This document shows positions 2,060-43,182 of a stretch of 64,000 nucleotides of DNA, piece by piece. A program made the translations under genes and the position numbers. The stretch's first letter is position 1. Every line of letters starts with the position of its first letter. The stretch comes from Rhizodiscina lignyota (Eukaryota): assembly GCA_010015805.1 (NCBI GenBank), contig ML978125.1, forward strand, positions 1,116,001 through 1,180,000, given 5' to 3'. The notes under the pieces are model-generated. The model searched no databases, was not told the origin of the DNA, and saw only the letters and a program-made list of their open reading frames with translations.

Positions 2060-4224
2060 TTAGCTCGTCAACTTCGACCACAGCCCCTTCTTCTGTGTCG
2101 TTGGCGTCTCCACCTTGTTGGCCACGATGCCGCCGGCCGCTGCGTCGCGGATGATCGCGAGGCGCTGCTTCGCCTTCTCGTCGCCCTGGTCCGCGGCGCG
2201 GACGTACCACACGTTCGCCTCGAGGGGGTCGCGGCGGCAGCCAATGCCCATTTCGGTGAAGTAGCCGACAGCATACTGTGCCTTGGCATAGCCTGCTCTG
2301 TATTAGCGTGAAACTATGTTACCCTTTGGAGCCGCAGTGATGTGAAAAGCTTACCGCAATCTGCCGCCCTCTTCGCCCACTCGTATGCCTCGTTCTCGTC
2401 CTTCTCCAACACCGGGATCGCGCCGACGAAGTACCACGCGCAGAGCGCCATCATCGCCTCGGGGATACCCGCCTGGGCCGCGCCATTGTAAAAGTGCACG
2501 CTCAGCGCCGGATCCTTCGGGCACGACAGCTGCCCATGCTCGTACGCCTGTCCCATGCGCAGGCACGCCTCCGGGTGGCCCAGATCCGCTGACTGCGTGT
2601 ACAGCTGCGCGGCATACGCCTCGTCCTTGAAGATGTCGTCGCCGTATCCGTGCTCGTGAAGCACGCCGAGCTCGTATGGCGCCGAGTTGTACTGAAAGTC
2701 CGCGCTCTCGGCCGCGCGCTTCAGCCACCTCATGCCCTCGCGCGTGCGGTTGCCCAGCCCCATGTCTCCTGTCAGGCAGGCGCGTCCCAGGCGCGTTGCG
2801 GCGCCGGGGTGGTTCTTGGCGGCGGCCTGGCGGTAGAACTGCACGGCTTTGGCGTAGTCCTTGCGGCAGCCCCAGCCGAATTCGTAGCAGAGTGCTGCGC
2901 GGTATCCGGCTTCGGCGTGGCCGTGCTTGCTCGCTGCCATGAAGAGGGGGAAGGCGCGCTCCCAGTCTTCCTTGCCCTTGTTGAACAGACCTGACGCGTA
3001 GCCGTCGCCCAGGTAGTATTGAGCGAATGGGTAGCTGCGGTCCGCCAGCTTCTGAAGTATCTGACGCGCTTCTCTCAACAGATCGACACGCGTCTCCGCA
3101 GTGTCCGACTCGCGGGAGGCTTGGACCATAAAGATGGCAAACTCGTACTGGATGCCGGGGTCGTTGGTCTTCTTGACGTTGGCGCGGTACATGTCGAGCG
3201 TCTTGCGGGTGTCGAGGAGGGATGCGTTGTTGCCGACGGCGCTGCGGAGAAATGTGTTGTCCATGCTCGGGGCTGGGGCAACTTGCTGTGGGTAGGGGAC
3301 GTTGAGCAAGTCGACATAAGACTGCGGTCTGCTGTCCGGTGTCTTGCGCGCTGCTGAGAGAGGACGGCCATAGCTGACTGGTGAGCCGCCGGGAGAGCCG
3401 GATCCACCGACTGAGAGATGAGGAGAGTGAGTCCGTCCTCTGGGCAGGCCGTCGGAGCCTAGGGTCAGGACGGAGTTGGGTCTTGGAAGGTCTGAACGCG
3501 GGACCTGGAGCTCGTTCACAGATGATCGATGGCCCATGTCTCCGTGAGAGGATGTAGAGTGCGAGTGAGAACTTGAAGATGCCACTGTTGCATGTGAGGC
3601 CCTTCCATGAGTCGGTGTGTCATCGAAAGGTTGGTGGTGATACTGCAGTGGCTGGTAGGCTTCCTCTGGTTCCGGTTCCGCTTCGGGCTCAGGTTCATAC
3701 TCTTGCTCTTGAACCGTTTCCTGAAATCTGTTCCCATTGTTTCTCGGACTGTACTTGCTGCTCTGATATTGTGCTCCATCGTCCACCACCGATATTTCGC
3801 CAACCTCAGACTGTGGGATTCCGTCCGAGACTTGCCTTACGTCTCGTTGTCGCAGCGCCAGCGTTTGTGTCGGTGGGATGGAAGCCTCGGAATCGCGAAT
3901 TGATAGGTTTTCGAAGCCACCAATCTCGTATGACGGCGTCCTGGAGAGGCCGCTGGAGCCATTTGTGCGAAAGGCTCGCTGGTTGTCGATAGGTGCAATC
4001 ACGCGTGGTGGAGGGAGACTGCCATGTCTGGGAGGATGTGGAGCAGGGGCAGCACGAGGAGGAGAGTCCTGGTTCCCAGGGAGCGGCTTGCGTGAGACAC
4101 TTGTGCGTGCCGTTAATGGAGCTTTCCGGTCTTCGGGGTTGTCGAATGGCGTTGGAGGCAATGCATGTGCGCTCGCGGGGTATGGAGGAGACTGCTGCAG
4201 TGCGGCGGATTCACCTGGGCCCAT
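2060..4224 (-). CDS. CHS4: Chitin synthase activator, Chs4/Skt5 family (Sel1-like repeats); exons 4224-2355 and 2292-2060
   Basis: Long Pro/Ser-rich N-terminus followed by Sel1 repeats (YPFAQYYLGDGY, HAEAGYRAALCYEFGWG, AMMALCAWY). A GT-AG intron at 2293-2354 gives GYAKAQYAVGYFTEMGIGC. First ATG is at 4224. Confidence 0.9.
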
Positions 4225-6704
4225 GGTAGCTCTGCGTCTTATATTACACTGGCCTCGCTCACCGCGGGCGCCGCTCGGGTGTGTATGTCTTTTTTCGCGA
4301 GGGGTCCAGCGCGTTGTTGTTTCGACTGTCGTGGAAGTTCCGGGTTCGAGAATGCAAGGGGTCCTCGGCACAGCTCGCAGGCGTTAGGAGAATGGCATAA
4401 GCAATTCTTTGTTCTCGCGGTCCTTCAGCCCGGAAGAATTCGAGGTTGCTCACGCCAGCCCGGTGTTGTGGATGAGGAGAGTTCTGCAACAAAGATGAGC
4501 GATTTCCAGGCCCACATTGGCGCGGACACTACGCTTAGGCTGCGGCTTCAGTGAATGCAGGGCACATACGCAATGAGCGGAGCAAGGCCACGATTCACGA
4601 TGACCTCGCAGAATTAGGTGGATAGACGAGCAAGTATTTGGAAGGCAGCCGAAAGAGTGAGGTTGAGGAAGAGGCAGGCTCAAATTGGTGATGGAGAGGT
4701 GGAGAGGTGCTCGATCAAGCTAACACTCCGTACTGTACAGGCGAAATGAAACCCCAGTTTGTGGCTTTACGCCATCCGACGCCCCGAGCAATTGGCGGAT
4801 GCAAAGCTTTCTGACGGCGCAGGCTATGCAGGCAGCCTAGCGCGGAGCGCCTTCACGCAAAACCGAGAACCTGAGCGGCTTCAATGGCACGCTGCTCAGC
4901 GCGCGCAGCACGGCGATACCCAGACGGCGTCTCACGACGATCAAAAGGGGCCTCCCTGTCGGCTCCAGCGCAGGGCAAACGCAAGTCATGACAGCTGCAC
5001 GATGCGGCAAGCGTGGGAGTCCCTAAGCGGAACATGGCGTAGCGGCTCGTCGAATAGGAAAGGCCCGCAAGACGAGACACACGGCTATTGCGTAAGAACG
5101 CGCTGCTTTGTGCTGCTACAAATAAGTCGACCGCTCTTGGCCCCCCTCCCATAGACGAAGATTTGAGCACAAGGCGAGAGCGCGGGCACTGCCAGCTGAC
5201 AGCAGTCGCTGTAGGTGGGCTCGACGACGAGCTGTGAGTGGACTGAATAGGCACTTGGTAGCGGGCTGCTCTGTCAATAGACACGCGCTTCTAGAATCGG
5301 CGGTATGAGATGAGCGCTAGCCTCACCCATCTCCCAACTCTCCGCCAAGCCGTCTCAGAGTGCGTCCCATCGACAGAGGCCAGCGTGCAGATGTTTCGAG
5401 TTTCTGCATCTGCCCAACCTGCGGGCGTGGATGACGTCTGACGCAGGCCGCATCGCATCAAGAGCCACGACAGAGTTCAGATGTGCCAGACTACGCTCGG
5501 ATTGAAGAGACATTGCTCCTTTCTGAGCACACCCAGTGGATCGCTGGGTGGATCAAAACGGGCACCATGCGCGGATGCTGTGGCAACATCGTATTCGGAC
5601 TCAAAGCGGACAGACAGGTGTTTCATTGCTCGACTGTTCCGCCGTCTTGCTAAGCTGCCAGGCACCGGCAATAATTCTGGCCCGTCTCCAGATGTTTCTC
5701 CGATGTTTAGGGAGGAAACCGCGTAAACAAACATTCAGCAATACAAAGCGGGCAGCAGACAACGTGTGAGTGGCTTCCGCAGCTGCCGCTTTGGTGTTTC
5801 GCCTACGCACCGGCGCAAGCCACGGCGAAAAGCATGGCTCGCTGAGTCGTAGGTAATTTAGGAACAGCAGAAGCAAAGGAATGGACATGCAGCCTCTCTT
5901 TATACCTACCTCAGCAGCATAAGATGAAACGCGAGTGCGTCGGCGAATTGAAGACGCACGTCATCGTGGTTCGAGAGATATTTGTAGCGTGAGAACGAGG
6001 CTGCGGTCGCCAGCGGCCCCGTCGCCCTGGCGATAGGCCGCACCGCGCAGGCCGTATGTATTTGTGCGCATGCAGAGTTTATTTGGGCTAGCCCCGAACG
6101 AGGCTGAGTGGTGTGGAGAAGACAGCCAAAGGGGCTCAACCTACCGCATCCACTGAACGCCTTTCAACCCTCCTTCTGCAGCCTGACAACCGCACACTCT
6201 GCCTTTCCTTACAACAATCGCTACAGCGAGGCCGGGAGCTGAGCGTCGTTCGCTTGCCAATTTCCTACCTTCGCTCGTTGACGGCCCCCGTTCGCTCAAC
6301 GCCGCAAGCTCTCTCGTTGCCCGGCGGACGCATCTCACACTGCCTTGCTCCCTGTCAACCCTCAACTGCCATCCTCCATATCCAACAACCCCACTGCGTC
6401 TGGCCACTCTCGCTCGTCTTCGCCGCCGGTCCGCTTTCGATACAAGCGCCGTTGTTCAATTATAGAGCCTGCACATTTCTGGAAGCCGTGAAGCTGCAGT
6501 ATCCCCTCCCGCTCGAGAGTGCGACTGTCGAGCCTCGTATCTGAAAGGAGGCCTTTGCAAGGCTCTGCAGCCTTGCTGCGACAGCAATTCTTTGAGAAAT
6601 CAGAGAGAAGAGGTTTGTTGCCAATTCTTTGTCGCTGGCACCACGCGCCTTATCTACGCTTGTGTGGAATGTAGCTAAGCTTTACATTCCGTAGACTCTT
6701 CGCC
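4225..6704. promoter_or_regulatory. Shared divergent promoter/5'UTR region between the chitin synthase activator and the chitin synthase
   Basis: 2.5 kb with no convincing ORF between two head-to-head ATGs. A pyrimidine-rich tract at about 6140-6430 resembles a fungal core promoter/5'UTR. Confidence 0.6.
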
Positions 6705-9700
6705 ATGTCGCATCAACGAGGGCAGCAGCCCTCCTCGCCGAGGCGCGAGAATCGTCACACTCCTGCGCGAGACTCTCCACGCCGTCGCCGACCATCTGAT
6801 CTCGAATCACGGAACTACGAGAGCAGTCCTGGCACGCCGTCACGCCAGAGAGTAAGCATTCCAGCATACAGCAGCCCCGCTGCCGCCTCACCAAGCACAC
6901 CAACAGGCGAACAACCAGATTTGATCATGACAAATGCGAAGGGAGCAGGAGGAGCGGACTTCTCGAGAAAGCGGAGCTTGATCAGGCCCGAGCGAAACAG
7001 GATTGACCCCAGTCATCCAAACTATTACTACCGCAAGCATGCCCAAGGCATGGCCGTTCAGCCATCCACGACGGGCAATGACCCCATCGTTGAAGAGCAT
7101 ACCATGACACTCGATTCTCAGAGCACAGATATGAAGAGCCTGAATCGCTCTTTTCCTAATCCCGCTGGTGGGGACGAGGATAACAATAATGAGAAGGGTG
7201 CACTTGCTCAAGAGACAGACCTGGACAACAACAGCAAGCTCAGACGTGGAGCTGGCGGTGGCACGCGCAAGTTGCAGCGGAAGCCGACTCGGAAAGAGCT
7301 AGTAGAAGAGAAGAAGAGAATGCAGGAACAAGATGCCGTCCGACCGCCAAGTCTCTGGAATGTCTACTGTGCAATCATCACTTTCTGGTGCCCAGATGCC
7401 ATCTTACGGTGCTTTGGCAAGCCACAAAAGGCTCAGCAACGAGCGTGGCGGGAGAAGATGGGCTTGATTAGCATCATTCTCCAGATATGTGCCTTCGTGG
7501 GTTACTTGACCTTCGGTTTCACGCAAACCGTGTGTCCGTCTGGAGGCCCAACAAGACTGCGAGTCAACCATGTCGATTCTGGTTTCCTGATCGTTAATGG
7601 CCAGGCATATGACTTGTCTAGGTCTCACCATCCATTGGCGCGTGGCATCCCAGACGGTGCGAACGTGTTGTTCGACTTGCCGGAGAAACATGGTGGCCAA
7701 GATGCAAGCTTCCTGTTCCAGAATGTGAACGGTAACTGCAAGGACCTGATTACTCTCGCCGACAAGTCCGATGTCCCAACAAACGACCAAAAGGATCTGG
7801 CTTGGTATTTCCCCTGCCGCACCTTCAATCAGGACGGCTCCACCAAGCCAAATATCTCTGCGGACCCATACTACCTTGGTTATGCGTGCCACACGTCGGA
7901 TACGGCACGTGATGCGTTCTATGCTCTGAGGAACTCTGGGGACGTCTACTTCACCTGGGACGATGTCAAGAATTCCAGTCGAAATCTCATGGTCTGGGGA
8001 GGGAATGTGCTCGATCTGAATCTCCTCGAATGGTTCAATAAAAGTCAGGTCTCGTACCCTGCGAAGTTTGACGAATTGCGCAACGATCCCTTTGTGCGTG
8101 GCGTTGATATGACCCGAGCATTGTCAACCAGCGAGGAGAAGAAGATCGGCCGATGTCTCTCGGAGATCGTCAAAGTTGGCTCAATTGACACGGCAACAAT
8201 TGGATGCATTGCGTCTGAAGTTGTGTTGTACGTATCGTTGGTCTTCATCTTGTCCATCGTCGTGGCCAAGTTCTTGCTGGCGCTCATCTTCCAATGGTTC
8301 TTGGCCCGTAAATTTGCAGCCAAGTCAGCGTTGGGAAAGGCAGACTCGAAGCAGCGCAAGCAGCAGATTGAAGATTGGAGTGACGATATCTACCGGCCCG
8401 CTCCAAAGCTTCTCGACCAACCAGCAAATGGCCCTGATCGCATCAGCAAACGTGGAAGTTTCCTCCCGACGACCTCTCGCTTCACGAGCCCTTATGCCAT
8501 TGACCGTACTACCAAGAACCGACCTGCGCCTACGACGATGGCAAGCCAGTCATCAACTTCTCGCCTTCTTCCTCCTAGCGGTAACGTGTACAGGGGTAGC
8601 AATTACAGCCAAACCACTCTCCAGCCCGGTACTGACCGATCAAGCATGCTCATGTCTGACCAGAGATACTCGAGCGTTATTGAGTCTGACGGTCCAGGAC
8701 CTGCAGGATTCATTCACGAAGCAGTTGTACCGCAGCCACCGCCAGACTATGAACCCTTTGGCTACCCTCTTGCTCATGCTATTTGCTTGGTTACCGCATA
8801 TTCGGAAGGAGCCGATGGTCTGCGTACAACGCTGGATTCCATTGCTACAACCGAGTACCCCAACAGCCACAAGCTCATTCTCTGTATCTGCGACGGTCTT
8901 ATCAAGGGCAAGGGCGAGGCAATGTCCACACCTGACATTGCACTTGCAATGATGAAGGATCATGCTGTGCTACCCGATGAAGTGGAAGCTTTCTCGTACG
9001 TCGCAGTTGCAAGTGGTTCGAAGCGTCACAACATGGCCAAGGTGTACTCTGGCTTCTACGACTATGGCGAAGACTCGGCAATCCCCATGGAAAAGCAACA
9101 GCGCGTCCCTATGATAGTCATCGTCAAGTGCGGAACTCCAGACGAGGCGACAAAGTCGAAGCCTGGTAACCGTGGCAAGCGTGACAGCCAGATCATCCTC
9201 ATGTCCTTCTTGCAGAAAGTGATGTTCGACGAGCGCATGACTGAGCTGGAATTCGAAATGTTCAACGGTATCTGGAAGATCACTGGCATCTCTCCCGACT
9301 TTTACGAGGTCGTGCTCATGGTCGATGCCGATACGAAGGTTTTCCCCGACAGCGTGACCCACATGATCTCCGCCATGGTCAAGGACCCTGAAATCATGGG
9401 TCTCTGCGGTGAAACGAAGATCGCGAATAAGCGCGCCAGTTGGGTTTCGATGATCCAGGTCTTTGAATACTTCATCTCGCATCACCTGTCCAAGTCCTTC
9501 GAGTCGGTATTCGGTGGTGTCACCTGTCTTCCCGGTTGCTTCTGCATGTACCGTGTCAAGGCACCAAAGGGTGGCCAGAACTACTGGGTTCCCATTCTCG
9601 CCAATCCCGACGTTGTCGAGCACTATTCGGAAAATGTTGTCGATACTCTCCACAAGAAGAATCTTCTGCTTTTGGGTGAGGATCGTTATCTCTCGACACT

Positions 9701-10497
9701 GATGCTGAAGACCTTCCCGAAGCGAAAGCAAGTGTTCGTTCCACAAGCTGTCTGCAAGACTACCGTGCCCGAAGAATTCAGTGTGTTGCTCTCACAACGT
9801 CGCAGATGGATCAACAGTACCGTCCATAACCTCATGGAGCTCGTCCTGGTCCGAGATCTCTGCGGAACTTTCTGCTTCAGTATGCAGTTTGTCGTCTTTA
9901 TCGAATTGGTTGGTACTTTGGTGCTACCTGCTGCCATCTCCTTCACCATCTACCTCAGTAAGTTCAAACAATCGCGCCCCCTATCAAGCTTTACTAATCT
10001 AGTCCTAGTTGCCATTTCCATCAAAGCCGGAATCACGCATACCGCAGCACCCGTGATTCCTCTGGTGCTTTTGGCGTTGATCCTCGGTCTTCCCGCTGTT
10101 CTGATCGTCATGACTGCCCAACGCTGGTCATACGTGGGATGGATGCTCATCTACCTGATGTCTCTTCCAATCTGGAACTTTGTGCTACCCACGTACGCGT
10201 ACTGGAAGTTTGACGACTTCAGCTGGGGCGAGACTCGGAAGACGGCCGGGGAGAAGACAAAGAAGGGAGGCATCGAATACGAGGGTGAATTTGATAGCAG
10301 CAAAATCACAATGAAGAGATGGGGTGACTTTGAGCAAGGTTCGTCTTTTTCTGCTGGTCACGTTGCACACAGCATGCTGACAAGGTTTCCCAGAACGTCG
10401 TCTCAAAACCCCGACTGCAGGCTGGTCGCAGCAATCAACTTCTGCGCCGGGCTGGCAGCAGCAGCAGCAGGGTTTCGACCCGTACTACGATAACTAA
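6705..10497 (+). CDS. CHS3: Class IV chitin synthase (Chs3 type); introns 9958-10008 and 10339-10393
   Basis: AWREKMGL motif, a cytochrome b5-like region, and catalytic motifs [26 protein letters not shown] and WKFDDFSWG. No myosin motor domain. Splicing gives a C-terminus ...FDPYYDN* ending at 10497. Confidence 0.93.
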
Positions 10498-21335: not shown

Positions 21336-23460
21336 ATGGATATCGACAAGTGGCTTGAAAATACCGCTGCTCGAGATCCTTCACCTCCGATCCCTCTGCA
21401 ACCCCATAAGCGCCCACGCAAGACGATAGACAACCAGAGAAAACAAAGTCGCAGACGAAAGGCCTCCCCGGCAAGTTCCTTGTTGGAACCTGCTTTGTTA
21501 CACAAATCTGTGGACGGAGATTCCCCTGTGCCTGCCAAACGCAAGAAAATCGCTGCACGCTCGTCATCTGGTGCTGCGAAACCGGCTTCAGACACAGACC
21601 AAGAATTGCTGCCACCGGCGCAGAGCTATGAGCGGCGACCACGTCGCAAGACTAGACCAGACTTGTACGAGCCCAAGGCAGACAAGCCTGTGCAGGAGAA
21701 GCGACGCAAGAGGGAGCATCGAGATGATTCTCCTGAGAGACAGCATCGCAGGAAGAAGAAGGGAAGGCATGAGAGGGTAAAGCCAAATCTGGCCGAGAAC
21801 TTTCAAGCGCAGAACGTTCCAGCGGAAAGACTCACAGTCAGTCACGTCATTGAGACTGCTGTGTAGTGGAGGTGATCATATTACTGACTCTGATATAGCT
21901 GAAGCCCAAATCGAACATTGGGCTATTCCAAAAAGGCAGAGCTTCCAACCCGGTCAGGGGTAGAGGATGTATGTCTCCTTCGCCATATCAATGACGTTTG
22001 CATTATGCACCGTGCTGACGAGAACAGTGCCAGATCTGACATTTTCGGAGATGAAGTTTTTGCACAAGCGAAACTTGTCCGAGAATGAGCAGGCAGCAAA
22101 CGACAATCTGAAGACATCGCGCGCAAAGGACAGGAATGAGATCAGCAACGAAGAATTTTCAGCCTACTTTGCATCAGAAAGACCCCCACTCGCCGAAAAG
22201 AGCACCAACATCCCTTCAAAGCCGGCCAAGACCAATCGTGATAAGATTCCTTTCTCAAATGCCGGGCGTCGAAGGAAGCCCTCTTCAACTGCAGACTCCA
22301 CTCTCCAAACCATTGAGCTTCCTGAAAAGCCCTTTCTAGGATTCGGCAGTAGGGGTGGACGGCAGTCCAGTGCCAGTTGCTTCACGCGGTCGGAATCAGG
22401 AAAAGCTCCTGGTCAGCTGCGGGACCGTGAGCGAATGAGCTCTGCTGCCAACGCCACAAATCTGCACCAACCTGACCTAGAACCGAAGAGGCCGCGATCC
22501 AGAGGAAAGGCACCGAATGAGCAGGACGATAACATGTTGCCAAGTGATGATACGGCAGAGCTGCAACGTCGACTTCGGCGACAGGCGGCCAAGCACTTGC
22601 CTCTAAGGGATTCGGAGCCGAGACACCCTATTGGTGAAAGGCGGCCGTCGTCTTTTTCATCTATGCCGCCCTCATCAAAGCTTGCTGAGTATGGATTGAG
22701 GCTGAAAAACGCTGTTTCAGGGCAGAGTGGTGCTACCGCAGCGTTCCAGGCCAATGTTGAGCCTGCCAACCATTCATCGCACAGCCACCATAATGCGCCT
22801 GAGCCTTTCCAGATGCATCAAGACCGTCAGCAAGATCTTCGGATGCCAGGAGATCAATTGGGACAATCAGACTTGGACAATGAGCAGCGGCGGAATTCTA
22901 TATTGCATAATGTGAGGCAACGGGGCCATCCAGACCAATTCAACCCTGCTCCTCCCAGTGCAGAGGCCTTCCGATATGCTACCGGAGAAGTTCGGCAAAG
23001 GCGATTTCTCGGAGCAACAGAGCCTGTCCACCCATCAACTAGAGATTTGCCTACTCGTGGAAGGACATCGAATTTCTCAGAGCACTTTGCGTTGCCAACA
23101 AATCTCGTGGGCCAGGAATATATCCCAACCTACATGGGCCAGCCGCTGGAAGGCTTCCAATCTACATACCAGGCTTATGATATCGAAGCGGTCCCAAACC
23201 ATTTAGCGGATGTATACCAGATCGACGAACTTGATGAGGAGGAGGAGGATGCTGAGGATAAGGCTGCCGGCGACTATGACTATGACTATCGGGAGTCAAT
23301 CTACGGCGAGACTGCCATGCTAACGGACGAGGAATCTGATGCTGCGAGTCAGACACGATTGCACTGGCAGAGTGCACGCCCTGAGGCTGCCATGGACAAT
23401 GGCGATGGTGATGATCAAGACATGTTTGAAGGTTTCTGGCAACCGAACGTTTTGTGTTGA
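21336..23460 (+). CDS. Uncharacterised basic, low-complexity protein; introns 21837-21898 and 21969-22027
   Basis: Two canonical introns join the ORFs into ...ERLTLKPKSNIGLFQKGRASNPVRGRGLPDLTFSEMKFL.... Many K/R clusters (NLS-like) and an acidic C-terminus ending FWQPNVLC. Confidence 0.65.
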
Positions 23461-26561: not shown

Positions 26562-28697
26562 ATGGATCTACCATCGACAACCGGCGCTGAAGAAACCGAA
26601 CTTCAGGACTCCACAGATGATCTCTGTGCAGTTTGCGCTTCTTTAGATTTCGAGTCCTTGTATGACATGGAAATTGATCCGGACAGCTTCTATCATGTCC
26701 AGGACCTAGGCTTTTGGGATGAAAGTTGGAGGGAGCGAACATGTCCTTTGTGCCAATTTTTCCGTGCAGTTTTGGGGAAATCCTCAGCCTCATCATGTTA
26801 CCTATATGGTCCCTCTATCGGGTTGATGTCGACTTGCCAGCTGCGCCGATATTCTCACACAAAAGATGTTATTGTGTTGCCAGTTGAAACAGACGATGTG
26901 GCCGATAGATCGAACGATTGGCGAAAACGGTGCAGTCTGGAGCTTAACCGCACCCACCGCTCTGTTTTATTCTTGTACCCTTCCGGCGCCAAACCACATA
27001 AGGATACCGAGTGGTCCTCTGCATTTGGAGCCATTTTTCCTTGAGCGCCTGGACAATATTCGAGAAGAGGTCGTGAAGGGCGCAAAAGTTCGAGCGGAGT
27101 GGGACTTCTCACGCATTAAGGGGTGGCTAGATCACTGTGATCTACATCACGGCACGGCTTGTAAAGAAACTGAAAATGGGAACATCCCTAAGTTTCAATT
27201 GTTGAATTGCGCGACCGGAAAACCGGTCCTCGGCCAGCTCGACCAACCGTATGCCGCACTGAGCTATGTTTGGGGTCCCAGTCATGGGATACCTTCTGAA
27301 GAAAGCGGGCCAGAAATAACACAAACAATCAAGGACGCTATGCTTGTAACAAGCCAACTTGGTCTACAATATCTCTGGGTTGATCGTTGTTGCATTCCTC
27401 GAAACGACAAACGGGCAGAGCAGATACAATTGGGCAAAATGGATCTAATCTATATGCGCGCTGCTGTCACTATTGTTGATGCATATGGCGAAAATGCCTC
27501 ATCTGGCCTCTGCGGGGTCAGCGTACCTCGATCTCCCCAACCAAGGATGCGAATAGGAAACTTTACGCTGACTTCGTCATTCGGAATGCCACCTATAACC
27601 ATAAAGGGCTCGCCATGGAATTATCGGGGATGGACATATCAAGAAGGGATACTATCTCCACGATGTCTCTACTTCACTAAACATGAGGTCTATTTGGAGT
27701 GTCGGAGAAATACATTTCAAGAAAGCATCGATGATCCGGAAACTTTGATGCTTGCCCGGGCTTTATATGACATGAAAGATGATTTTGCCACCCTCGAAGC
27801 CTCAGTGGGGCATACAACCCGTGTATTTCCTTCCGACTGTTTAAACGAGCTTAAGCATAATCCCGATCGGATTTCAATAAGGATGCATGAGTATGGACGA
27901 AGAGATCTGTCATATCCGGCAGACGCGCTCAATGCATTTTCCGGCATTCTGTCCAGGTTCAATCATCCTCGTTTCGAGATCTCCTCGATATTCGGCGTAC
28001 CCATTCTTTGGACCTCCAGAGATTGGACATTTGAAGAAGGCTTTGCTGCGGGTCTCTCCTGGCGAACCATGACGCTACATCCAATAACAGGATCGTCATT
28101 CCCAACATGGTCGTGGTGCGCGTCGGGTGGGTGTTTACGCCAAGTTCAACATTACTACTTTACTGGTATCAAATGTCCTCCAGGACTGAGTTTCAGATTC
28201 GAAACAACGGCTGGGAATCTCGTATCATGGAGCGACATGAGAGAAAACTTTGACCGAAGCGATTTACCTTTTTCATGCGAGTTGAATCATATGTCATTTC
28301 TTGTACTCTCATGTATGAGGAGAATCCCGATGACAACTGGTGGGCAAAGTTAGGGACTCGGAGTGATCGTAGCTCCATTCTTGCTGTAGCTTTTCTCCGT
28401 TCTCCTGATGTTGCAGATGAGGCCTTTGATAAAGGCACTAACGAGATGCGCTGTGAAGTCTTGATACTTGGCGATCTAAGTCCTACGCGGTGTAAAGACC
28501 GTGAAGCTCTTAGTAGAGCTGTTGCCACGCGGCCTTTTCTGATGGTTATCGAAAATAAAGGTGACCATTACGAACGCATTGGAAATATAGAGCTCGGTTG
28601 GGCTGTGAAAAATTCGGACGGCGAACGACTCCCAAGTGGTACGGACATTTCCTGGGTCCTTGAGGACGCGCAGTGGCGAAGCATTAGGCTGGGTTAA
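26562..28697 (+). pseudogene. HET-domain gene split across three ORFs by two apparent frameshifts (about 27035 and 28310)
   Basis: N-terminal LC..C...CPLC..F (frame A), HET core YAALSYVWG/QTIKDAM/YLWVDRCCI/MDLIY/RGWTYQE/PTWSW (frame B), and C-terminal YERIG (frame A). I see no convincing intron at either junction. Confidence 0.65.
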
Positions 28698-41390: not shown

Positions 41391-41956
41391 ATGGCGAAAG
41401 ACAACGAAACAGTGATCCAGTGAGTTTCCATGAAAATACGTCGGCGTGAGAGAACACTGAATCGCTAAATATCGCGACAGAGAGTTCAATGAGCTTGTCA
41501 ATATGTCAGCGCAGGAATTGAAAGACTGGCTTGGCAAGGACGAGTCGACTGGCTCAGGTTGGGATAAAAACGATGGCTCCGGTGAAACTATTGGTCACGA
41601 AAGGTGGACAACACCGGGGTCTGTGCTTCTTCGTTGAGTGCTGAATATGCCAGTGGTCGGAAGATAGTCCAAATCCTGGAGAAGAACCCAAAGAAAGATC
41701 CGGATAAATATGCAGAGGATGATATCGAGCATATGAGAAGAGTAGTCGCGTACAACAAGAGGTGAGGAAGTCAGCATCGAAAATCGGAGCAAAGCCCTTG
41801 ACGATGAATCAACAGGCATCTCGCACAGGAAGAGAAAGCTAAGCAGGATACGAACAGTAAATCCTACAAGTCTTTGAAGAACTGATAAGTGCCCGCCTAC
41901 ATGGTGCAGAGCCTAAGCTGACCAATAAAACGGGGCATGATGCTCAAAAGACGTAG
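41391..41956 (+). CDS. DUF3140-family protein, 117 aa; exons 41391-41419, 41481-41603, 41654-41761, 41816-41884 and 41932-41956
   Basis: MAKDNETVIQEFNELVNMSAQELKDWL...GETIGHESGRKIVQIL...DDIEHMRRVVAYNKRHLAQE...SLKNWGHDAQKT. Missed by the ORF track because the exons are short. Confidence 0.85.
41885..41931 (+). other. AT-AC intron (47 nt) with U2-type signals
   Basis: TG|ATAAGT...GCTGAC CAATAAAAC|G. Removal converts an apparent TGA stop into TGG and restores NWGHD. Confidence 0.78.
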
Positions 41957-43182
41957 AAGAGTGTTTTGAGATCGGATAGTACTCATCCGTATGTGCAATA
42001 GCATGATTTGAGTTTGTGCATGTGACGGATGTGGGAGATGTTTCAAATTACAGTGATGTTGAGAGCAGCTTGAAAGGAATAGAGATCTGACTTCCGAGCC
42101 ACGGAGAGACCATGCTCTACAGTCATTATATATTTGGAATTTACAATGCAATCAGCATTTAAATCGTGTTTGATCTGCAGCTTCGCAGACGCGTCGGAGC
42201 TTGTTTAACGCAGATGTTTAAACTTCTGCTCTGCCATGGTGAATGCTCAACGTACTTGTATGCAACTCTTCAGATGCAGACCTGGCCCGAAGAGTTGCGT
42301 CAGTAGATGCAAGAAGGCTCGTGCTTAGTGAGGACCGAGGCGAATTGCACCAGACCATTATTCTGGGGGCAAGTTTTCACGGCTCAACGTACCGAGTACC
42401 AGGTTGGCAGTCTGGTAGGGAGAGGCTGGATAGGATGGTGTGGCATGAACGCTGAACGGCCGTCGATGACAAGCCCCGAAATGCACGTCCGGTCAGGCAG
42501 AAATCGGTTTCAGAGCTGCAGCTTACACGGCATGGGAGCCATTCGGAAGACACCTAGAGCTCTGCAGCGTTGGTGGCCGGCCGCTGGTGGAGGTGGACTT
42601 TTAAGGTGTGGCCGAAGCAAGGCAAAGCCACCGCCAACCTGATATGCTGCGTACAATCAAGCTTGCGAATTCATGTGCCAACAAGTCCAAGGCACCGCGG
42701 CGGTTCAGTTGAAGCATTTGCGGCTCGCATGGAGCTGAATTGAGATCGCAAAATGGACGCAAAAACCTTCAGCTAGCGACATCATGGGATGCCGACCTCG
42801 TACAATTCCTGGCCTGATGGCATGATCTACGGTACATTCGAAGGCACTCCATCCTGACGAGTCAGGCGTGTCGTTTTCGGCAATCCATCACGCGCGTTTG
42901 AAGGTGAGACTTCACCGGGGGCGGAGCACGTCTTCTTCAGAGACGGTTGTTGCAACTGCAAAGGCGAAAGACGGCCGACGGCTGATTGCTAATGAGGATT
43001 AACACTCAAAGGCGGTAGAATGATGGAGAGCTGCTTCTTCAGCGGAACAACAGTCGTCCGCTCTGACTTGCCCTCGCGGACGACGAGGCATCAAGGAGGC
43101 AAAGGAGGCGAATTAATGGCAATTGTGGGCGCACCACCTGCCCGTCTCGGGGCTTTTTGCTGTCGAAGTGCGCAGGTAAAGG

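Follow-up and report, generated by a model that had tools for sequence, protein, structure and literature searches.

Introns of the U12 type carry the donor /ATATCCTT and the branch TCCTTAAC, which lies 10-15 nt from the 3' end, and they are not the only introns that can begin with AT and end with AC. A U2-type AT-AC class has been defined as comprising AT-AC introns with a good U2-type donor except at position +1 (Sheth et al. 2006, PMC1557818), and its members are described as having a "very strong /ATAAGT consensus" (Gould et al. 2016, PMC5029451, citing Sheth 2006). The class is small, with 24 of 608,562 U2-type introns assigned to it across five species (PMC1557818). In U2-type introns of yeast and human, a G-to-A change at the first base is reported to be rescued, less efficiently than GT-AG, by a G-to-C change at the last base (PMC1557818), and an engineered AT-AC intron splices in yeast (PMC5029451).

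For filamentous fungi, xylanase genes have been hypothesized to hold AT-AC II introns (PMC1557818), and RNA-seq analysis of Fusarium graminearum reported AT-AC among the non-canonical junction types, with seven genes carrying non-canonical sites checked by Sanger sequencing (Zhao et al. 2013, PMC3577648). AT-AC introns are described as rare in fungal annotations (Frey and Pucker 2020, PMC7072748). According to a survey of >3000 genomes, Ascomycota and Basidiomycota lack convincing minor introns, and most or all minor snRNAs have been lost in Ascomycota (PMC10639083). Our literature search for AT-AC introns in Dothideomycetes found none, its matches being polyketide-synthase domain strings.

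Here, we followed up an initial annotation of a 64,000-nt stretch of DNA (hereafter the window) from Rhizodiscina lignyota (Pezizomycotina, Dothideomycetes, Aulographales), which had proposed that an AT-AC intron of the major spliceosome hides the end of a DUF3140 gene behind an apparent stop codon. Two of its premises are in line with the published record: the A...C terminal pair had been called mutually suppressing in the major spliceosome, as documented by the yeast and human rescue experiments (PMC1557818), and the minor spliceosome had been considered lost in Pezizomycotina, for which the genome survey reports no convincing minor introns in Ascomycota as a whole (PMC10639083). The degree of novelty is not supported. 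The mechanism class, U2-type AT-AC introns with /ATAAGT, is already described, and AT-AC introns have previously been proposed in filamentous fungi for xylanase genes (PMC1557818) and listed for F. graminearum (PMC3577648).

Results

A five-exon DUF3140 gene with AT...AC ends at its last proposed intron

The gene, which is small and highly conserved in fungi, spans 41391-41956 on the + strand of the window (Table 1). Re-reading the sequence reproduced the exon/intron layout and every letter that had been quoted for it. Exons 2 and 3 both scored above the cut-off (gathering score) of 25 bits for Pfam PF11338 (DUF3140). All four introns are in phase 2, introns 1-3 end in CAG, and joining the five exons by script gave 354 nt or 117 codons with 0 internal stops. 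The 3' end of exon 4 reads ...AAG AAC TG, and the unspliced frame continues into TGA and then directly into TAA. Downstream, GCTGAC lies at 41917-41922, intron 4 ends in AAAAC, and G GGG CAT GAT GCT CAA AAG ACG TAG follows (41932-41956). With 47 nt, intron 4 is slightly shorter than the other three introns of the gene (50-61 nt), in which branch-like sites read by eye as CTGAA, CTAAA or TTGAC occur at a similar distance from the 3' ends.

Table 1 Features of the DUF3140 gene in window coordinates, with intron 4 as proposed
Feature	Position	Strand	Description
Exon 1	41391-41419	+	29 nt; ATG ... ATC CA
Intron 1	41420-41480	+	61 nt; GTGAGT...CGACAG; phase 2
Exon 2	41481-41603	+	DUF3140 start; PF11338 E 1.2e-11, 45.2 bits, profile positions 1-38/92
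Intron 2	41604-41653	+	50 nt; GTGGAC...TGCCAG; phase 2
Exon 3	41654-41761	+	DUF3140 middle; PF11338 E 5.4e-09, 36.8 bits, profile positions 40-70/92
Intron 3	41762-41815	+	54 nt; GTGAGG...CAACAG; phase 2; in Arg codon before HLAQ
Exon 4	41816-41884	+	...HLAQEEKAKQDTNSKSYKSLKN + TG of Trp codon
In-frame TGA if intron 4 is retained	41883-41885	+	its A is the first intron base; TAA at 41886-41888
Intron 4 (proposed U2-type, type II, AT-AC)	41885-41931	+	47 nt; ATAAGT...TAAAAC; phase 2
Branch-site-like CTGAC	41918-41922	+	A at 41921, 10 nt before last intron base
Exon 5	41932-41956	+	G finishing Trp codon, then GHDAQKT, TAG

The donor of intron 4, ATAAGT, equals the U2-type consensus apart from position +1, and the ends of the intron are AT (41885-41886) and AC (41930-41931). 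CTGAC, 10 nt from the 3' end, occupies an ordinary branch-site position, as do the corresponding sites of the gene's other three introns. In agreement with the initial annotation, neither the U12-type donor /ATATCC nor the branch TCCTTAAC was present within 41885-41931, where the branch region reads CCTAAGCTGACC.

A single junction restores the conserved protein end

Combining every donor at 41830-41886 with every acceptor up to 41994 resulted in 6404 pairs that keep the frame, and only 41885/41931 led to ...SLKNWGHDAQKT (...SLKN-W-GHDAQKT), a junction whose position is fixed, since its two flanking bases are not the same. GT-AG and GC-AG pairs reaching the GHD frame all remove the conserved ten residues SKSYKSLKNW; the best-looking among these canonical pairs is 41857-41909 (53 nt), with the donor GTAAAT and with CTGAT (41882-41886) 24 nt before CAG (41907-41909). 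The enumeration thereby upholds the claim that AT...AC is the only solution. The pattern ATAAGT-N15-45-CTRAY-N4-20-AC had one match in the 64-kb window, namely intron 4, versus 1.55 expected, and at least one match in 76 of 100 shuffles. By itself, the set of ATAAGT, CTRAY and AC signals is within chance; what lies beyond chance is its exact placement between the TG of an invariant Trp codon and a conserved 7-codon exon.

A protein search with exon 2 against 1.84 billion representatives returned 180 proteins at E <= 0.001, and the full-length proteins among them end in ...SLKNWGHD plus four residues. A second search with exon 2 returned 115 proteins, including 100 new ones; Aulographum hederae, Patellaria atrata, Glonium stellatum and Mytilinidion resinicola are among the species represented. 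Exactly 117 aa were found in 47 of these 100 further relatives, and NWGH[DE] was present in 80 and followed by exactly four residues in 76 of the 80; the remaining 20 are either fragmentary or evidently wrong gene models. NWGHD, which had been named as the conserved C-terminal motif of DUF3140, is borne out by these counts. The spliced product of the window has the usual family length of 117 aa and four residues after NWGHD, and the window protein contains NWGHD plus about four residues only if 41885-41931 is removed. It is identical to a protein of Aulographum hederae at 97 of 117 positions, and its last eight residues match two named Dothideomycete proteins, P0183 and P0200, at 8/8 positions. 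In a 50-sequence alignment including the window protein, 42/42 invariant columns are intact in the latter. The 49 other full-length proteins of this alignment all have the W, G and H of the motif, and 48 of them have the D, which is replaced by N in P0225; the window's own 109-aa public model lacks the motif.

Coding constraint on the last two exons

A scan of metagenome contigs yielded 233 pattern matches and 132 confirmed relatives, of which the best 80 were kept. All of these 80 loci are distant: at most, 81 of 97 residues encoded by the exons are identical, and identities of the exon DNA range from 67 to 85%. The exon 4 peptide is 22/22 identical to four of them (L007, L010, L017 and L071), with exon 4 DNA identities of 81-85% and DNA matches that stop exactly at 41884. 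Because the peptide is fully identical at this level of DNA identity, the codons of exon 4 were clearly translated in the past. GHDAQKT of exon 5 is 7/7 identical to nine of the best 80 of 132 loci, from which the DNA differs at 3-7 of 21 nt; all these differences are synonymous, and the gene stops where the family does. Exon 5 has been under coding constraint in the past; with only 21 coding nt, the comparison has little power against recent loss. The rest of the DUF3140 gene shows no decay. A C-terminal pair was obtained for 79 loci (from the best 80 of 132), and 78 of these contain NWGHD, 12 of them after GT-AG removal, the exception being L040. No second DUF3140 copy was seen in R. lignyota, with one protein named from the species among the 115 matches.

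The top match, P0151, is 100% identical to exon 2 and is annotated as a hypothetical protein of R. lignyota with 109 aa. It corresponds to the first 109 aa of the spliced model and ends in ...KSLKN, i.e. at the TGA listed in Table 1. The public model is probably eight residues short, without the invariant WGHD end of the family, and an end at ...SLKN is what had been anticipated when the gene was predicted to be mis-annotated by gene finders.

The sequence at both intron ends

One public run (X1, 34 Mb of contigs), which may represent the assembly's own source data, was compared with the window. Its contigs are colinear with the genomic sequence, introns included, and the run therefore represents DNA. 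Over 41621-42000, a single 30,977-nt contig (depth 155.5) agrees with the window (0 differences), and neither a competing contig nor any joint was seen. A check of the bases at 41885 and 41931, as called for by the initial annotation, showed no variant at this depth of 155.5 in a run that may be the assembly's own data. Sequencing errors at exactly both intron ends at such depth are not credible.

Short alternative contigs with 1-3 differences were observed beside the main ones at 41503-41555 and 41572-41650 (exon 2/intron 2), none of them over the AT-AC intron. Their depths sum to the flanking depth (123.8 + 43.5 versus 169.7; others 7.1, 15.9 and 4.5). These contigs suggest two or more alleles in the sequenced material.

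Intron positions at the 3' end of the gene in relatives

The stretch from HLAQ to GHD was readable in 79 of the best 80 of 132 loci, with L078 as the exception. It was uninterrupted in 66 of the 79 (50 distinct sequences) and interrupted in 13 (10 distinct sequences). Of the 66 uninterrupted loci, five (L001-L004 and L075, which is of bacterial type) form a single open frame from the start to NWGHD; as possible transcripts or bacterial genes, these five are uninformative on introns. Among the 13 interrupted loci, 12 regain the family length by removal of exactly one GT-AG intron, and four intron positions are represented. The intron separates the codons for Lys and Asn in L029, L041, L061 and L064, lies inside the Ser codon as TC/G in L055, directly follows the Trp codon in L059, L060, L063, L072, L073 and L079, and splits the Gly codon behind its first G in L032.

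An intron after the TG of the Trp codon was present in 0 of the 79 loci drawn from the best 80 of 132, as were AT-AC ends, and no GT-AG ancestor at the site of intron 4 was seen among them. This outcome was unexpected, the initial annotation having looked to orthologues for an intron at the same position, and it means that the 79 loci provide no comparative proof of selection maintaining the AT-AC ends. The nearest intron in relatives, the one after TGG, lies one base downstream of the TG/G position in the window. Intron 4 is not derivable from it by a simple change, and no significant similarity was detected among the intron sequences. Intron 2, between exons 2 and 3, was present in 45 and absent in 28 of 73 measurable loci, and an intron between exons 3 and 4 was found in 0 of 66 measurable loci (both from the best 80 of 132). 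On these counts, introns 3 and 4 are both specific to the lineage of the window among the sampled relatives. When tested for introner-like behaviour, neither intron had similar copies in the 64-kb window or in the best 80 of 132 loci.

The TG/G position of the window is the fifth intron position in the last ten codons of the DUF3140 family. Two further positions are hinted at by read-through protein models, one by P0134 and P0142 (...SLKSEY / ...SLKSKF) and the other by P0154 and P0201 (...SKSYKYETPDY). From these sequences, intron gain or sliding seems to have a hot spot in the last ten codons of the gene. The remaining interrupted locus, L040 (positions 1432-1547), has 46 extra bases before ...SLKNWGHD and no GT-AG solution with the family length; two 49-nt solutions, one GT-AG and the other AT...AC (donor ATCCGA), both yield a product that is one residue short. 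L040 may contain another non-canonical or damaged intron.

Other readings of the interval

The interval could be a disabled intron, that is, a former GT-AG intron that lost both terminal Gs (+1 G to A, -1 G to C) and is rarely or never removed, leaving a 109-aa protein without WGHD or an incipient pseudogene. Such a loss would fit the public model of 109 aa ending in ...SLKN, the position and ends shared by 0 of 79 relatives (best 80 of 132) and the lower efficiency reported for AT-AC rescue (PMC1557818). However, it requires two changes at exactly both terminal bases, and to exactly the mutually suppressing pair, in a gene that has no other damage in its 354-nt coding sequence and keeps 42/42 invariant columns. 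Exon 5, moreover, is 7/7 identical to relatives with only synonymous differences, where a protein without a near-universal motif would be expected to lose constraint, and no spare copy was seen (1 protein from the species among 115 matches). We regard a disabled intron as unlikely, though as the main rival to a working one. Far less probable is a different splice, either GT-AG at 41857-41909 or AT-AC with the AC at 41921-41922, which would alter SKSYKSLKNW or W, respectively. Both pairs keep the frame into GHDAQKT, and the former has a GTAAAT donor, CTGAT 24 nt before CAG and a typical length of 53 nt, but the SKSYKSLKN region that it removes lies in the stretch that is 22/22 identical to four loci at 81-85% DNA identity and so was translated. 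In addition, no relative ends in this way, 76 of 80 motif-bearing proteins keep the same spacing, and the AC at 41922 falls within the one good branch site.

A U12-type AT-AC intron removed by the minor spliceosome would share the terminal dinucleotides, and a branch 10 nt from the 3' end would also suit that type. Its donor, however, would be ATATCC and not ATAAGT, no TCCTTAAC-like branch is present, and an Rfam scan of the 64-kb window gave 0 matches, hence no minor snRNA within those 64 kb. With no convincing minor introns reported in Ascomycota and minor snRNAs mostly or all lost there (PMC10639083), this reading is nearly refuted. Equally improbable is a sequence or assembly error at 41885 and 41931 with G and G as the true bases. 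Nothing specific speaks for it beyond the dependence on a single run that is possibly the assembly's own data; against it stand the 30,977-nt contig with depth 155.5 and 0 differences, minor variants elsewhere in the gene that were resolved as separate contigs, and the implausibility of two mistakes falling exactly on the intron ends.

Three candidates that dispense with splicing were rejected. Stop-codon read-through would meet a TAA directly after the TGA. A-to-I editing is known in some Sordariomycetes, and here a TGA-to-TGG change would add only W before the TAA. A frameshift into the GHD frame would insert 16 residues, and none are found there in 76 of 80 relatives.

The DUF3140 protein and the surrounding window

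No convincing sequence match to a solved structure was found for the DUF3140 protein, the best having an E-value of 0.0036, to a repeat protein. The AlphaFold2 model of a relative, P0161, is predicted to be all-helical (mean pLDDT 79.5), and a fold search with this model in the PDB gave no match at E <= 0.001. A literature search for 'DUF3140' found no paper in the collection covered, and the 'DNA-binding protein' label met among the matches is the source's name only. Two proteins, P0232 (986 aa) and P0249 (1050 aa), have an SPO22/ZIP4-like domain (PF08631) joined to DUF3140 and are probably fused models of neighbouring genes, from Seiridium and Apiospora.

Elsewhere in the window, at 2314-10493, a - strand Sel1-repeat ORF adjoins a + strand chitin synthase ORF that includes a CHS4-like domain, an ordinary divergent pair of a chitin synthase and an activator-like partner. 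The window also has a HET-domain ORF (26827-28353) and further genes of ordinary fungal kinds, fitting a filamentous ascomycete. Two 498-aa ORFs at 21964 and 44074 were considered as a duplication and dismissed, their sequences being unrelated.

Discussion

The reading that we favour, and consider probable though well short of certain, is that 41885-41931 is a working, lineage-specific AT-AC intron of the major spliceosome. From the sequence features described above, we infer both its excision and the major spliceosome as the agent. In this mechanism, U1 and U6 would recognise CTG/ATAAGT as an ordinary strong donor despite the A at the first base, and the branch would form at A 41921 of CTGAC. 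The second step would then join the first AC downstream of the branch, at 41930-41931, because an A as the first intron base is partnered by a C as the last, in place of a G at both ends. The resulting mRNA would encode ...SLKN-W-GHDAQKT-stop, the normal 117-aa DUF3140 protein.

The initial annotation had further suggested a switch between full-length and truncated protein via inefficient splicing. With the +1 A belonging to the TGA, such a switch is logically conceivable, though as pure inference. A second extension of the working-intron reading is that the intron is young, having been gained together with intron 3 in this fungal lineage or being confined to it. Neither intron 3 nor intron 4 occurs in any sampled relative, which would fit this view, and we hold it to be conceivable but somewhat unlikely. 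Were the intron young, major-spliceosome AT-AC introns could arise anew in fungi instead of being relics. Since the in-frame TGA is created by the A at +1, the proportion of complete and truncated protein would depend directly on the efficiency of splicing.

If the intron is real, a filamentous fungus without a minor spliceosome would provide a natural A(+1)/C(-1) compensating pair on which a protein depends, and the intron's lineage specificity would bear on the relic versus recent origin of AT-AC introns. No new type of mechanism is implied, and the new elements are modest: an intron that would be needed for a conserved protein end, a public model that is probably wrong, and a distribution that appears lineage-specific rather than ancient. 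For annotation practice, fungal gene finders should permit /ATAAGT...AC/ introns where a conserved end sits just past an apparent stop.

Among the known systems, U12-type AT-AC introns share with intron 4 only the terminal dinucleotides and the short distance from branch to 3' end. Their donor /ATATCCTT and branch TCCTTAAC are absent from intron 4, and their machinery is reported to be missing in Ascomycota (PMC10639083). A closer likeness is seen with the U2-type AT-AC II introns of animals, which are described in SCN4A, SCN5A, other sodium-channel genes and TAF2 (PMC1557818) and, like intron 4, have AT...AC ends on an ordinary major-spliceosome donor. Their published consensus /ATAAGT is identical to the donor of intron 4, and both lack U12-type signals. 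In contrast to intron 4, whose position and ends recur in 0 of 79 loci (best 80 of 132), the animal introns are reported as conserved across orthologues (human-fish, human-fly) and are read as relics. Intron 4 is also unlike them in being 47 nt long, with a fungal-type branch near the 3' end and without a pyrimidine tract.

Within the fungi, the AT-AC junctions of F. graminearum (PMC3577648) and the xylanase genes come from the same subphylum, Pezizomycotina, and have the same non-canonical ends as intron 4; the genes are different, and the likeness is by description only. The same mutually suppressing pair is present in the A(+1)/C(-1) introns engineered into pre-mRNAs of Saccharomyces cerevisiae and human (Parker and Siliciano 1993, cited by PMC5029451 and PMC1557818), of which those in S. 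cerevisiae are spliced by the major spliceosome of a fungus without a minor spliceosome. These introns are laboratory-made and less efficient, whereas intron 4 would be natural and located in a conserved gene. The nested AT-AC intron of RPL30 in S. cerevisiae (PMC5029451) is likewise endogenous to an ascomycete without a minor spliceosome. Its donor is unlike /ATAAGT, it is reported in about 1-2% of transcripts, and it is described as dispensable for the protein (PMC5029451). Compared with RPL30, intron 4 combines a perfect type II donor with a position at which its removal would be required for the conserved end of the protein.
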